Assembly (NCBI GenBank): GCA_951406725.2
Contig: OX597822.1
Span: forward strand, 43,772,001-43,836,000
From: Octopus vulgaris
Taxonomy: Eukaryota
DNA length: 64,000 bases
Reading direction: 5' to 3'
Shown one piece after another: positions 12,624 to 64,000 of the stretch. A program made the position numbers and the translations under genes. The stretch's first letter is position 1. Each line of letters begins with the position of its first letter. Below the pieces are notes generated by a model. It was not told the origin of the DNA, ran no database searches, and saw only the letters and a program-made list of their open reading frames with translations.

Positions 12624-12831
<208 letters not shown>

Positions 12832-12886
12832 GGTCCCGGGTTAACCACAGTAAATAAGGTACTCAATACATAGCAGAGTAAAATTA

Positions 12887-12994
12887 ATTTATTATATAGA
12901 AGGAGCTTCTACAGGACTAGAACTGTTTCATTCAAAAGATTTCTCTTGAATGAAACAGTTCTAGTCCTGTAGAAGCTCCTTCTATATAATAAAT
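12887..12994. repeat. Fold-back, ~49-bp arms
   Basis: 12887-12935 pairs with 12946-12994. Lies between TA tracts, next to the family A array. Confidence 0.9.
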
Positions 12995-13172
12995 AAATAT
13001 ATATATAACGTGACGTATTTTTGCCATTTCAATATGGCTAACCCCTAAGGGTGGATGCTACTGTAGTTTTTTAGCCCCAGGGCACACTCCTCCAGCTGGC
13101 CATAGACACACTTTCTGTGTCCTGTCAGTATTTGCAAAGGGAAGACATCCTTCCCGTCTTCAACTTATGATA

Positions 13173-13217
13173 CACACGGACTCGAGTTTCGAGGTATTGA
13201 CCTCTCGTCAGCGTGTG
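13173..13217 (-). ncRNA. Type I hammerhead ribozyme, family A, inverted copy
   Basis: Exact reverse complement of the same motif. Confidence 0.9.
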
Positions 13218-13454
13218 ACAATCATAGTTGTCGCCGAGAATTAGATTTCCTTCACAAATACTTATACTTTTTCCAGCGTCCACTGTCGCTGATATTGAAA
13301 AAGTGAAATCAAACAATGATAAATATCAATGTGAGTTATATACAGTAGCGGTAACACAACGTGACGTATTTTTGCCATTTCAAAATGGCTAGACGCTGGA
13401 AAAAGTATAAGTATTTGTGAAGGAAATCTAATTCTCGGCGACAACTATGATTGT

Positions 13455-13499
13455 CACACGCTGACGAGAGGTCAATACCTCGAAACTCGAGTCCGTGTG
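13455..13499 (+). ncRNA. Type I hammerhead ribozyme, family A, copy 1
   Basis: cacacg-CTGACGA-GAGGT(caat)ACCTC-GAAAC(tcga)GTC-cgtgtg. Canonical core, 6-bp stem I extendable by tatgat/atcata, 5-bp stem II, palindromic stem III ACTCGAGT. Predicted cleavage after C13493. Confidence 0.92.
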
Positions 13500-13807
13500 T
13501 ATCATAAGTTGAAGACGGGAAGGATGACTTCCCTTTACAAATACTGATAGGACACAGAAAGTGTGTCTATGGCCAGCTGGAGGAGTGTGTCCTCCTGGGG
13601 CTAAAAACTACAGTAGCATCCACCCTTAGGGGTTAGCCATATTGAAATGGCAAAAATACGTCACGTTGTGTTACCGCTACTGTATATAACTCACATTGAT
13701 ATTTATCATTGTTTGATTTCACTTTTTCAATATCAGCGACAGTGGACGCTGGAAAAAGTATAAGTATTTGTGAAGGAAATCTAATTCTCGGCGACAACTA
13801 TGATTGT

Positions 13808-13852
13808 CACACGCTGACGAGAGGTCAATACCTCGAAACTCGAGTCCGTGTG
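13808..13852 (+). ncRNA. Type I hammerhead ribozyme, family A, copy 2
   Basis: Identical motif 353 bp downstream of copy 1. Predicted cleavage after C13846. Confidence 0.92.
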
Positions 13853-14225
13853 TATCATAAGTTGAAGACGGGAAGGATGACTTCCCTTTGCAAATACTGA
13901 CAGGACACAGAAAGTGTGTCTATGGCCAGCTGGAGGAGTGTGTCCTCCTGGGGCTAAAAACTACAGTAGCATCCACCCTTAGGGGTTAGCCATATTGAAA
14001 TGGCAAAAATACGTCACGTTGTGTTACCGCTACTGTATATAACTCACATTGATATTTATCATTGTTATATATATATATATATATATATGTATAGCTATAT
14101 ATTTATATGTGTATATGCATGTATAAATATGCGTATATATATCTGAATATATATATATATATATATATATGTATAGCTATATATTTATATGTGTATATAC
14201 ATGTATAAATATGCGTATATATATC

Positions 14226-21799: not shown

Positions 21800-22660
21800 A
21801 AGTACATTTCTATTTACGAATCAATTCTTCATAATAGAAGTGGCTACTTGCTGACAAAAGACGGGAAGACACGCTGGACAAATTGTGATTTTATAGTCAA
21901 TTTTCCTTAAAATTTATTACCACATCCGAAATTTAAATCAAATACCAGCCGAAAAGAATGGGAAATCAGAATTGATTTTAACAATGATTAAGATAAAGTT
22001 ACCAAAGAAGCTGATAAGTTTAGTGCTGAAGTTGTTATGAACTTGGAATACTATATAAACACATTTCACTAATTCTTCGTTGTGAGAACACTTACAATGA
22101 AAAGGTTATGAATTACTAGTCCTAAGTAATGAATAAACTTACTACCTTCATCCAACTTTCCCAAAAGGAACTAATGTGATACGAAAATGACTATTTAACG
22201 AGATAGGACTGTAAAACCGGCAACGAACTTCCAAATGGCCATAAGAGCAAAACAATAAACCAAGAGTGTAGATCAGCCTTACAGGTTAATAATATACCCC
22301 GTTCAAAGATCTCATATTACGACGAAATACAGTAGGCCTGTTCTGTGGCAATAAGTAAGTCAGGGCAAACATTCAACATCCAAGGACATTTCAAGGTGAA
22401 ATTTAAATTATGTCATCGAATTTGGTGGAGACTACATAGGACAAACGAGCTTGACTATGAGAACAGAATAACGGTAAACTGGCAACCGATTCGAGACTCC
22501 ACGACTTGGAAAATTTCTGAGTAAACATTTAGATCTGTTCTCCACGAACAAACATCCTAGATACCAAATCTCTCCTGTATATGAATGCATCTCAAACGCT
22601 TCAACTCAATTCCTATTAAATAAGGAAAATATATTTATTAAGGAATATAAACAACCATAA
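21800..22660 (+). pseudogene. Highly decayed Penelope-like ORF 3' end
   Basis: YIGQT motif (TAC ATA GGA CAA ACG at 22433) in A-rich broken coding-like sequence. Boundaries are approximate. Confidence 0.5.
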
Positions 22661-40094: not shown

Positions 40095-40994
40095 GTCAAT
40101 CTATCATCTATAATCTATCTATTAATACATGTTCTTTAGTCGAGCAAACCGCCCCCGGGACTTATTCTTTGTAAGCCTAGTACTTATTCTATCGGTCTCT
40201 TTTGCCGAACAGCTAAGTTACGGGGACGTAAACACACCAAAACCGGTTGTCAAGTGATGTTGGGGGGACAAACACAGACAAACAAACATACACATACATA
40301 TATATACATATATACAACGGGCTTCTTTCAGTTTCCGTCTACCAAATCCACTCACAAGGCTATGGTCGGCCCGAGGCTATAGTAGAAGGCACTTGCCCAA
40401 GGAGCCACGCAGTAGGACTGAACCCGGAACCATGTGGTTCGTAAGCAAGCCACTTACCACACAACCACTCCTACGCCTGTACATTCTTGTATATGGGGCT
40501 GTGTAATATATGTTTTTCATGTTTGAAACTAAATCTGCAAATACTCTCTCGTGGCCGATTCGTGAAGAAGCAATCATTGCTCTCAAACGTTATCTGATTA
40601 ACAAAAGTCGGACATTTAAACCAAGTCAAGGGAAAAGTGAACAACCCATTGAGCTGCATATAGGGAGCTTATCGAGAAGAAAGAAAACGTGTTAAGAAGC
40701 ATTTATGTCCAGTAATTTAACTGAAAATAGTTTCACTTTAAGTTCTTCCAAAAATATTCCAGTCATTCAAGAAATGGATAGATTCAGAGAAGACCTACTT
40801 TAATTAATCAACAACTGCGAAAGTTTTTGCCTGAGACATACGGTACCAGGCTGCTGATTTCTATTAAAAGAGCGTTATTCAAAGAGATACTACTTCCTAG
40901 TTTGTTCTTAAATGCCTGCCCACGCGCACACATGTTTATATAGGAGACTGTCTGTGATATGTGTACTGATGCATTAGTCTATCTATCTGTTTGC

Positions 40995-41066
<72 letters not shown>

Positions 41067-41127
41067 ATATCTATCTATCTCTATAATACACACTCAAATA
41101 TATATGTACGTATGTGTACATTTATAT

Positions 41128-41512
41128 ATGGCTGTGTGGTAAGTAGCTTGTTTATCAACCACATGGTTCCGGGTTCAGTCCCACTGCGTGGCACCTTGGG
41201 CAAGTGTCTTCTGCTATAGCCTCGGGCCGACCAAAGCCTTGTGAGTGGATTTGGTAGACGGAAACTGAAGGAAGCCCGTCGTATGTATGTATATATATAT
41301 ATCCGTGTGTGTGTTTATGAGTCTGTGTTTGTCCCCCTAGCATTGCTTGACAACCGATGCTGGTGTGTTTATGTCCTCGTTACTTAGCGGTTCGGCAAAA
41401 GAGACCGATAGAATAAGTACTGGGCTTACAAAAGAATAAGTCCCGGGTCGAGTTGCTCGATTAAAGGCGGTGCTCCAGCATGGCCGCAGTCAAATGACTG
41501 AAACTAAAAAAA
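41128..41512 (+). mobile_element. SINE family S2 (tRNA-like head, internal microsatellite, LINE-like tail)
   Basis: ggctgtgtggtaag...ggttccgggttcagtccc head. Other copies at 31050-31485 (-), 34485-34633 (-), 40135-40477 (-), and 38240-39060 (+, interrupted). Confidence 0.85.
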
Positions 41513-46316: not shown

Positions 46317-46377
<61 letters not shown>

Positions 46378-46604
46378 ATTAATCAATATAGGGTGTCAAA
46401 AAAAATTTTGTAGAATTCTTTTGCCACCAGCGGCCTAGTAGGAAAAAATTAAAATAGTCATAGACCATTTTTAAGTTCAACATCAACAATAAAGGAACGG
46501 CCATAATAGGCCATTCACCCACTAGAAATAACAGCCAAAGCTTCAACCGCAAATAAAAGTCAATTCAGTAAACCAGGAGAAAATTTAAAAACATTTACCC
46601 TGTA

Positions 46605-46711
46605 ATTTCTTATACGATATACCGTTTCATCTGCTGATTAATGGTAAACTAACCTGATTAAATTAAATCAAGCCAATCTTCCACAGGCCCTCAGATTCAT
46701 CAGTAAGAAAT
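46605..46711 (-). ncRNA. Type I hammerhead ribozyme, family B
   Basis: Reverse complement of 48569-48675. Confidence 0.88.
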
Positions 46712-46721
46712 AGCCCAAGAC

Positions 46722-46902
46722 GTAAAAAGCACCCACTACACTCTCGGAGTGGTTGGCGTTAGGAAGGGCATCCAGCCGTAGAAACACTGCCAGACTTGAC
46801 TGGGCCTGATAAAGCCTTCTGGCTTCACAGACCCCAGTAGAACCGTCCAACCCATGCTAGCATGGAAAACGGACGCTAAACGATGATGATGATGATGATG
46901 AT
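46722..46902 (+). mobile_element. 5'-truncated retroposon 3' end with (GAT)n tail (RTE-type tail)
   Basis: Absent from sister units of the array. Contains ggttggcgttaggaagggcatccagccgtagaaa and ends in (gat)7. Confidence 0.75.
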
Positions 46903-47278
46903 GGAACAGATATTTTCACGAGGCATTTCCGACGTTGCCAAGTTTATATCTGACCTAAAATTTTCAAATCGTCGCACTCGCGCCAAATTTATCGGCAGCA
47001 AATAAATATAAGCCGTCGATTCCATTACGGAATTAACCAGAAAATTCATAATTAATCAATATAGGGTGGCAAAAAAAATTTTGTAGAATTCTTTTGCCAC
47101 CAGCGGCCTAGTAGGGAAAAAATTAAAATAGTCATAGACCATTTTTAAGTTCAACATCAACAATAAAGGAACGGCCATAATAGGCCATTCACCCACTAGA
47201 AATAACAGCCAAAGCTTCAACCGCAAATGAAAGTCAATTCAGTAAACCAGGAGAAAATTTAAAAACATTTACCCTGTA

Positions 47279-47385
47279 ATTTCTTATACGATATACCGTT
47301 TCATCTGCTGATTAATGGTAAACTAACCTGATTAAATTAAATCAAGCCAATCTTCCACAGGCCCTCAGATTCATCAGTAAGAAAT
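47279..47385 (-). ncRNA. Type I hammerhead ribozyme, family B
   Basis: Reverse complement of 48569-48675. Confidence 0.88.
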
Positions 47386-47769
47386 AGCCCAAGACGGAAC
47401 AGATATTTTCACGAGGCATTTCCGACGTTGCCAAGTTTATATCTGACCTAAAATTTTCAAATCGTCGCACTCGCGCCAAATTTATCGGCAGCAAATAAAT
47501 ATAAGCCGTCGATTCCATTACGGAATTAACCAGAAAATTCATAATTAATCAATATAGGGTGGCAAAAAAATTTTGTAGAATTCTTTTGCCACCAGCGGCC
47601 TAGTAGGAAAAAATTAAAATAGTCATAGACCATTTTTAAGTTCAACATCAACAATAAAGGAACGGCCATAATAGGCCATTCACCCACTAGAAATAACAGC
47701 CAAAGCTTCAACCGCAAATAAAAGTCAATTCAGTAAACCAGGAGAAAATATAAAAACATTTACCCTGTA

Positions 47770-47876
47770 ATTTCTTATACGATATACCGTTTCATCTGCT
47801 GATTAATGGTAAACTAACCTGATTAAATTAAATCAAGCCAATCTTCCACAGGCCCTCAGATTCATCAGTAAGAAAT
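47770..47876 (-). ncRNA. Type I hammerhead ribozyme, family B
   Basis: Reverse complement of 48569-48675, 491 bp from the previous copy. Confidence 0.88.
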
Positions 47877-48568
47877 AGCCCAAGACGGAACAGATATTTT
47901 CACGAGGCATTTCCGACGTTGCCAAGTTTATATCTGACCTAAAATTTTCAAATCGTCGCACTCGCGCCAAATTTATCGGCAGCAAATAAATATAAGCCGT
48001 CGATTCCATTACGGAATTAACCAGAAAATTCATAATTAATCAATATAGGGTGGCAAAAAAAATTTTGTAGAATTCTTTTGCCACCAGCGGCCTAGTAGGA
48101 AAAAATTAAATAGTCATAGACCATTTTTAAGTTTAACATCAACAATCAAGGAACGGCCATAATAGGTATATCGTATAAGAAATTACAGGGTAAATGTTTT
48201 TAAATTTTCTCCTGGTTTACTGAATTGACTTTTATTTGCGGTTGAAGCTTTGGCTGTTATTTCTAGTGGGTGAATGGCCTATTATGGCCGTTCCTTTATT
48301 GTTGATGTTGAACTTAAAAATGGTCTATGACTATTTTAATTTTTTCCTACTAGGCCGCTGGTGGCAAAAGAATTCTACAAAATTTTTTTTGCCACCCTAT
48401 ATTGATTAATTATGAATTTTCTGGTTAATTCCGTAATGGAATCGACGGCTTATATTTATTTGCTGCCGATAAATTTGGCGCGAGTGCGACGATTTGAAAA
48501 TTTTAGGTCAGATATAAACTTGGCAACGTCGGAAATGCCTCGTGAAAATATCTGTTCCGTCTTGGGCT

Positions 48569-48675
48569 ATTTCTTACTGATGAATCTGAGGGCCTGTGGA
48601 AGATTGGCTTGATTTAATTTAATCAGGTTAGTTTACCATTAATCAGCAGATGAAACGGTATATCGTATAAGAAAT
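48569..48675 (+). ncRNA. Type I hammerhead ribozyme, family B (long stem II)
   Basis: atttctta-CTGATGA-ATCTG(about 58-nt structured loop)CAGAT-GAAAC(ggtatatc)GTA-taagaaat. 8-bp stem I. Predicted cleavage after A48667. Confidence 0.9.
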
Positions 48676-48794
48676 TACAGGGTAAATGTTTTTAAATTTT
48701 CTCCTGGTTTACTGAATTGACTTTTATTTGCGGTTGAAGCTTTGGCTGTTATTTCTAGTGGGTGAATGGCCTATTATGGCCGTTCCTTTATTGT

Positions 48795-48843
<49 letters not shown>

Positions 48844-62406: not shown

Positions 62407-63445
62407 GTCTATCAATTTCTCTACCTTATCTACCTGCACATGTATGTACGTCGAACGTTAGAGATACCCTAATGTTCTGCCAAAATTTTAACATCCAGTT
62501 CGCTCAGCTACCCAAATATTACCGACTGGTTCACGAAGCCAGCCCGATTTTGACCATAAATTTCGTAAAATCTTACCGTTTGTCAATAAAATATGACTTT
62601 ATGAATATAATATTAAAATACCCTAATATCTAGATTCAAAATAAGCCGGTGTCGAAATGCGCCTGAAGGGGAAAAAAGAGCGAATATTTTATATGTATAG
62701 TATACTGGCAAAGTTTATTTGATGCTACTACGGATTACACAATATAATGTTTCATTGGTTTGAGAAAGTGAGAGAGGGAGAAGGAAAGGGAGGGAGACGG
62801 AGAGGTGGTAAGAGGCTGACGCGATATGGGGAAATGGGCAATATGATGGATGTTAGAAAGACACATCCTTCAAACAGCCCCCAAAATATACGGTTTAGGT
62901 GACAGTGTCAATGTATTGTAGAGAGAGGGAAAATACCCATAAGAACAACGCAGGGGTGTCCGTTTCATATATATATACATATATATACAAAGACATACAG
63001 GAAGTAAACAGATACCTATAATTTTCAAAATCTTATTTAATTCGCAAAGCGAACAATTGAGATGTAATTTATAGGAAGGACTACATACTTCAGCATTTAG
63101 TTGAAATTCACTTTGCAGTTTTTAATTCAGAAACTCTTTTTGGCATTTAACTGATGAACTTTGTGATTGTCGCTTGTGGAATTTCTCCCCAATTTTGACG
63201 CAACAATCGAAACAATTCATCTTTAGATTTAGGTTTCTCTCGAGTTTTTTGTATAGCTCTATCTAGTATAATCCAAAGATTTTCAATTGGGTTCATGTCA
63301 GGAGTTTGTCTCGGTCAAGGAACCCTTTTGATCCCATTTTCAGCCAGCCATTGTTGAATCTTTTTCGGTGTGAGACATGGAGCCCCATCTTCCATGAATA
63401 AAAACTCATTTTTCGTTATGTTATCGTGTGAATATATCGGAAATA

Positions 63446-63881
63446 ATAGAAATATTAAAATAACTAAGTCTCTCTAAAAGAGAACAGCGGCAGCGTTCCC
63501 GGAAAATAATAGTTATCGCCATACTAATATGGCATTCTTATAAAAATAAGAAAAAAGCTGTCCGCTTATTAGCTCCATGAGGCCATCGCCTTAAGTTAGC
63601 TATTTGATACACAAACTGTATCCATATAACCTTCGAACAGAGATTGTCGGAAGCGACACCTACTGGCTGGCTACGCTGCATTGAAAAGGGGCAATACCCC
63701 GAAACGCGTCTGTAGCTGCCGGTCAAGTAGTGTGGAGCGACTGACCTCCCTTGTTCGAAGGTTATATGGATACAGTTTGTGTATCAAATAGCAACTTAAG
63801 GCGATGGCCTCATGGAGCTAATAAGCGGACAGCTTTTTTCTTATTTTTATAAGAATGCCATATTAGTATGGCGATAACTAT
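63446..63881. mobile_element. Fold-back insert carrying HHR family F, with 13-bp TSD
   Basis: Inverted arms 63506-63639 and 63752-63884. Direct repeat TATATCGGAAATA at 63433-63445 and 63882-63894. Interrupts a Tc1 reading frame. Confidence 0.85.
63675..63716 (+). ncRNA. Type I hammerhead ribozyme, family F (U3-A8 core variant)
   Basis: gctgca-TTGAAAA-GGGG(caata)CCCC-GAAAC(gc)GTC-tgtagc. 6-bp stem I with one G-U, palindromic ACGCGT. Predicted cleavage after C63710. Confidence 0.82.
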
Positions 63882-64000
63882 TATATCGGAAATAGTTCTT
63901 GCTTAAGTATTTCGATGTATTTTTCAGAGTTTATGATTCCAAAACATTCGATCAGCTCAGAACGACCATTGCTGGTGACAGCTCCCCATACCATTATCGA

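Follow-up and report, generated by a model that had tools for sequence, protein, structure and literature searches.

Two head-to-head partial copies of a 362-nt hammerhead repeat form a fold-back insertion in an Octopus vulgaris Tc1 element

Non-LTR retrozymes are described, in the accessible text of Cervera and de la Pena 2020 (PMC7229834), as non-coding units of 150-450 bp (350-390 bp in mussel) that are dispersed in thousands of copies, carry one type I hammerhead each and are flanked by target-site duplications (TSDs) longer than 4 bp; retrozymes and their circular RNAs are also treated in PMC7761336. Penelope-like elements (PLEs) are named there (PMC7229834) as no more than a “strong candidate” for the mobiliser of animal retrozymes. 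Further, a preprint has argued from co-occurrence and pLTR phylogeny that animal retrozymes derive from PLEs and are not autonomous (bioRxiv 10.64898/2026.07.22.740005).

Several features of PLEs are pertinent to the locus studied here. In rotifers, copies can bear an inverted pLTR, a tail and a TSD of 8-10 bp, and one copy has a 15-bp overlap at its junction (PMC3846280). A tail at one end is general in PLEs, and the origin of their tandem and inverted structures and their microsatellite bias have been listed as open questions (PMC8557442). For the Poseidon element PAc, in vitro work traced the tail to two reverse-transcription start sites, found both target strands cut and extended, and led to the prediction that the enzyme acts as a dimer; priming in that system needs neither target homology nor hammerhead cleavage (PMC11167929). 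The hammerheads of Schistosoma PLEs have a U3-A8 core and occur as pairs of motifs on opposite strands, 100-700 bp apart (PMC4209133).

In this report, we examined a 64,000-nt stretch of the Octopus vulgaris genome (hereafter, “the window”), in which a Tc1 fossil is split by a 449-bp insert. The identical 13 bases at the two ends of this insert, noted in an earlier sequence-only reading as a TSD, are indeed present (Table 1). The insert comprises two partial copies of a 362-nt hammerhead tandem unit, arranged head to head. We number the unit from the first base 3' of the predicted hammerhead cut site (position u1). Because the antisense copy runs from u238 to u42 and the sense copy from u276 through u362 to u175, both outer ends of the insert correspond to RNA 3' ends, and the 5' ends meet centrally. 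The sequence-only reading had described 134-bp inverted arms around a 112-nt spacer. The pairing and the gap are as it stated, but the right arm has 133 nt, the 63-nt tail had been overlooked, and the “spacer” is no loop; it is the portion of the sense copy, the longer of the two, that is left unpaired. Outside the left arm, 60 nt (63446-63505) between it and the left TSD have no pairing partner. The fold-back is the product of an insertion; what moves is the 362-nt repeat.

Table 1. Features of the insert and its host element (positions in the window)
Feature	Position	Strand	Remarks
Host degenerate Tc1 copy	62998-64000	-	Ends ~700 bp past the window; ~1.25 kb without the insert
Left TSD, 13 bp	63433-63445		Last 3 nt common to the tailed end of the element
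Tailed (T) arm	63443-63639	-	Antisense, unit 238 to 42
63-nt tail, unit 176-238	63443-63505	-	T arm only
Left inverted arm, 134 nt	63506-63639
Short-ended (S) arm	63624-63884	+	Sense, unit 276-362 then 1-175; crosses the predicted hammerhead cut site
Head-to-head junction, 7-nt exact microhomology	63633-63639		Within an imperfect inverted repeat of 16 nt internal to the unit (u42/u276)
Type I hammerhead motif	63675-63716	+	Descriptor scan and conservation across copies; Rfam-negative
Right inverted arm, 133 nt, one base deleted	63752-63884
Right TSD, 13 bp	63882-63894		First 3 nt common to the short end of the element

The host element has terminal inverted repeats of ~55 nt, is 82-90% identical to its sister copies, and retains its left TA, the right one being altered. 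Its D-to-E spacing, counted on the translation, is 34 (DD34E); a sister copy (L037) matches DDE_3 with an E-value of 6e-16. Excision of the insert had been said to restore a transposase reading. On the minus strand, the separately translated flanks are indeed in register across the TSD (the right flank ends in ...KQELFPI, and the left resumes with FPIYSHDN...MEDGAP), but the left flank contains further stops, so the host copy is dead either way.

The mobility claimed for these units is borne out by the sister copies, the comparison that the sequence-only reading had proposed. Among the 11 that we inspected (of 39 other matches listed), ten have a single copy of the 13 bases, one is broken off at the site, and the insert is absent from all. 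The copy that breaks off (L042) does so inside the 13-bp site and continues into unrelated sequence, perhaps because of another insertion there. The insertion in the window is recent. Copies of the repeat outside microsatellites are rare, and this is one of them; its TSD and empty site are readable for that reason. The combination of a TAT start and an ATA end at the window site is found in none of the 11 sister copies, which fits a site chosen through homology to the element's ends.

The placement of a hammerhead within the spacer also stands. A descriptor scan of both strands of the window detected a type I motif there, with a 6-bp stem I, the core TTGAAAA (63681-63687), a 4-bp stem II, a GAAA and a palindromic CGCG loop III. 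The core is the U3-A8 variant, and the predicted cut falls between 63710 and 63711. An Rfam search, at the gathering score and at E-values up to 10, returned no hammerhead, and therefore the assignment rests on the descriptor and on conservation across copies. In the minimum-energy folds of the spacer and of the unit, the strands of the hammerhead are buried in a long stem. Of 114 copies, 110 have an intact core, with position 7 varying freely, and loop III is palindromic in 110 of 114 (CGCG in 95 and CATG in 15). Both features are retained across subfamilies that are 15-20% apart. To judge from this conservation, the predicted hammerhead is under constraint. The switch of loop III between two palindromes is as would be expected for cleavage as a dimer, although, because the copies are related, it may represent a single event.

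The 362-nt family has thousands of copies in the genome (2.8 Gb in 227 contigs), mostly in (TA)n. An exact 22-mer near the S end gave 3109 matches and the hammerhead 903; reversed controls gave 0. Tandem arrays reach at least seven units. To describe the insertions, we used an unselected sample of 48 loci (every cluster except one in the first 100 matches listed), which contained 52 clusters: 35 were fold-backs and 17 were in a single orientation, some of the latter perhaps being fold-backs with an arm shorter than 25 nt. With two duplicates set aside (L024 of L015 and L030 of L006), the ends of the 35 fold-backs follow a strict rule. Twenty-seven join one short and one tailed end (S+T), none is S+S or T+T, and eight have one unclassed end. 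Another 28 loci, picked by their likeness to the window copy (26 of them S+T), are a biased set and were left out of this rule. Among the 3' ends of the unselected sample, 77 of 87 could be classed as S or T, and 70 of 87 abut (TA)n.

The outer ends of these insertions are fixed, S at u175 and T at u238, 63 nt apart, and both end in CTATTAT. Two fixed ends that bound a 63-nt tail are the Penelope tail signature. The interior, by contrast with these ends, is variable: the arms range from 26 to 1827 nt and contain tandem units, and the central junction moves. Such a tabulation of arm and TSD lengths had been suggested by the sequence-only reading. Since flanks in (TA)n render automatic TSD calling meaningless, TSDs could be read in just eight distinct fold-backs among the 31 loci tried; they measure 6, 12, 12, 12, 13, 14, 14 and 14 bp, those of L192 and L193 having been read by eye and those of L058 and L199 lying in low-complexity flanks. 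Two fold-backs with readable flanks (L187 and L200) have no TSD. At one locus (L075 882-2357), a whole fold-back insertion, microsatellite flanks included, is duplicated 1.1 kb apart.

These data bear on whether the insert could be a fold-back DNA transposon or MITE in which a hammerhead-like motif arose by chance. The arms are long and near-perfect inverted repeats, the outer ends have seven terminal bases in common, and the TSDs have a narrow range of lengths, all of which such an element would display. However, the 63-nt tail makes the ends asymmetric, and neither symmetric terminal repeats nor a uniform structure was found: the arm lengths vary as above with tandem units inside them, a third of the clusters (17/52) are in a single orientation, and an RT-encoding family with the same anatomy (family A, below) exists in this genome. 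We therefore give next to no credence to this origin, and the insert is neither a MITE nor a simple hairpin. The sequence-only reading had likewise favoured retrotransposition over a MITE. It was right, there being no fixed terminal inverted repeats and no TA TSDs, and neither of the two outcomes that it had named as refuting was seen. We refine it in that the TSD lengths fall in a narrow range and the outer ends are fixed.

How the two arms of an insertion came to be inverted is addressed by their haplotypes, which we compared with the homopolymer at u122-131 excluded. In young copies, the arms of one insertion were discordant in 1 of 52 polymorphic-site comparisons, versus 1322 of 3274 between insertions; in older copies, the figures were 17 of 317 versus 2771 of 5942. 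The old arms carry 126 unshared changes in 2688 columns, so conversion between arms is incomplete. Units within one array also have uncommon variants in common (L052, L091, L185 and L194).

A shared haplotype is what one would expect if the inversion had arisen by self-priming, i.e., by the folding back of one nascent strand rather than by two priming events. Self-priming has been argued for rotifer PLEs from palindromes at their junctions (PMC3846280), and the window copy has its junction on the unit's internal inverted repeat (u42/u276), a junction seen again in other copies of the family. Yet for 16 of the 25 S+T insertions compared in the unselected sample (from which the second L075 copy and the rearranged L080 were left out), and for the window copy as well, neither arm could have served as template for its partner. 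The T arm (198 nt) and S arm (261 nt) of the window copy each lack the sequence needed for that role. Further, most junctions lie away from the internal repeat. A simple DNA fold-back origin of the inversion is thus largely refuted, and we consider self-priming in general to be quite improbable. Because the arms have the same haplotype and yet neither could template the other, each must have been copied on its own from a shared template or source. This combination favours a model in which the two target strands both prime on a single RNA, which is probably circular; alternatively, the single-haplotype arms could reflect one homogeneous source array or conversion between arms.

The junctions themselves are informative with regard to the template. 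None of 50 junction ends lies within 5 nt of the predicted cut site, so the template was a circle or an uncleaved multimer and not a cut monomer. Exact microhomology could be assessed for only 13 of the 27 unselected junctions; seven of these 13 have at least 2 nt, versus 16% in random joins.

We propose that the insert in the window probably represents one insertion of a non-LTR retrozyme, the 362-nt non-coding repeat with its hammerhead, carried out in trans by a PLE's RT/GIY-YIG enzyme. First, tandem transcripts would self-cleave as hammerhead dimers and then circularise. The PLE enzyme would next make two nicks, one in each target strand, offset by 12-14 nt. The 3' end at either nick (here ending in ATA) would then pair with the UAU of one start site, and both paired ends would prime reverse transcription on one template, probably a circular RNA. 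Finally, two cDNAs of any length, which may extend through the cut site into multimers, would be joined head to head over short microhomology. The self-cleavage and circularisation, the pairing at the start sites and the final joining are the least certain of these steps. Priming homology is scant at one locus (L071).

Another possibility is that the same PLE enzyme used a linear template, either an uncleaved multimer transcribed from a genomic array or a pair of RNAs made at a single source locus, with the hammerhead and circles uninvolved in insertion. Insertion by Poseidon in vitro was unaffected by hammerhead mutants (PMC11167929), eight of nine frog retrozyme dimers showed no cleavage (bioRxiv 10.64898/2026.07.22.740005), and family A, with a unit of ~4.6 kb, yields the same inverted S+T structures; the absence of junctions at the cut site fits a linear template equally well. 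Against it stand the retention of the core and of the loop III palindrome across divergent subfamilies and the uncommon variants shared by all units of an array, which would be the direct outcome of a monomer circle. On balance, a linear template seems unlikely to us, and we continue to favour a retrozyme circle mobilised by a PLE enzyme.

The 362-nt unit contains no ORF with the RT and GIY-YIG domains of an autonomous PLE, and no RT/EN match was found in or attached to its copies, neighbouring matches being separate insertions. We infer the class of the helper, a PLE, from the insertion signature. Such elements are present in this genome. Family A is autonomous (RVT_1, E-value 4e-7; GIY-YIG, E-value 0.0016) and has a U3-A8 hammerhead; two-ended copies occur at six of its 12 loci, every one of them S+T and with a ~45-nt tail. 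As represented at L138 (4286-8830), family A is very young, with many identical copies and an upstream frame of 367 codons before the RT-EN frame. A second young family, B (L204 and L232-L235), has frames of up to ~1200 codons, a tandem unit of ~4.5 kb and the hammerhead core TTGAAGA, a U3-G8 wobble. The unit has no blastn similarity to the active families A and B or to an older GIY-YIG family around L032, the three PLE families sampled from ~15,000 candidate matches per search. A match of 13 nt to family B is in the other orientation and was put down to chance. Two pairs of matches, 6.6 kb apart, resembled the flanks of a full-length element but enclosed no ORF in common. As regards transcripts, no RNA records containing the unit were among the matches listed, which were all contigs; four contigs of conjectural RNA status were left out of the evidence.

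Other repeats in the window deserve mention. Three further fold-backs within it have the same asymmetry of short and tailed ends. At 13000-14066 lies a second hammerhead family with a canonical CTGACGA core and a period of ~353 nt, present as an inverted copy plus a tandem in (TA)n, with short and tailed ends and a tail of ~46 nt. A third tandem family, at 46370-48800, has a period of ~490 nt and forms a fold-back with a tail of ~110 nt; by eye, its core resembles that of a hammerhead, stem II being very long, and one of its units is broken by a SINE-like insert at ~46723-46905. The short fold-back at 12830-13000 has an unpaired extension of ~55 nt, and its end sequence recurs beside a PLE copy in L138. 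Decayed PLE RT/GIY-YIG fragments occupy 21818-22651 on the plus strand (tblastn E-value ~1e-8). Finally, two opposed SINE-like repeats at 40268-41328 are 89% complementary and do not form a fold-back of the retrozyme type.

An intriguing extension of these results is that two-ended priming may be obligate: a PLE dimer, with both nicked target strands as primers, would start once at S and once at T on one RNA, here the retrozyme circle, and join the two cDNAs head to head. We offer this idea tentatively and rate its chances at somewhat under even. Obligate two-ended priming with S and T starts was not found stated in the literature searched, which included few subscription papers and no supplements. 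If it is true, the 362-nt family would be evidence, taken directly from a genome, for the mobilisation of retrozyme circles by PLE enzymes, and fold-backs would be explained without antisense self-priming. The family adds single-haplotype arms and a strict one-short-one-tailed rule, and thereby makes two-ended priming testable. As a young, large family with a strict end rule and a few readable TSDs of 12-14 bp, it predicts what a PLE system in vitro should show as to the stagger of the nicks, the two starts and the use of a circular template.

With regard to known systems, the insert in the window is a non-autonomous Penelope-like element of an already known kind, and it is ordinary within that group. 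The unit resembles the non-LTR retrozymes in the accessible text of PMC7229834 in its size range, its single hammerhead per unit, its dispersal and its TSDs longer than 4 bp. It differs from them in its U3-A8 core and in that the majority of copies are fold-backs, joined head to head and bounded by two fixed ends; the word “inverted” does not occur in that text. Our conclusion on origin and helper is the same as that of the preprint (bioRxiv 10.64898/2026.07.22.740005), whose available text does not contain the word “tail”; the octopus evidence is the insertion signature.

As for the PLEs themselves, the octopus copies share with the EN+ elements covered in the consulted parts of PMC3846280 and PMC8557442 an inverted, 5'-truncated, head-to-head copy, a tail at one end, a short TSD, a microsatellite bias and a hammerhead in the repeat. 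Unlike those elements, the 362-nt unit has no ORF, its tail, at 63 nt, exceeds their 30-40 nt, and its TSDs are 12-14 bp, not 8-10 bp. The Schistosoma PLE hammerheads, as presented in the portion of PMC4209133 at hand, show the same covariation in the core and a palindromic helix III suited to dimer cleavage, whereas the octopus helices are of canonical size (6 and 4 bp) and lie in a tandem non-coding unit. Poseidon PAc, to the extent that PMC11167929 was accessible, likewise has two internal start sites that bound a tail and inserts into AT-rich targets. In contrast to PAc, which primes without homology, the octopus start sites have CTATTAT in common and often match the target end by ~3 nt.
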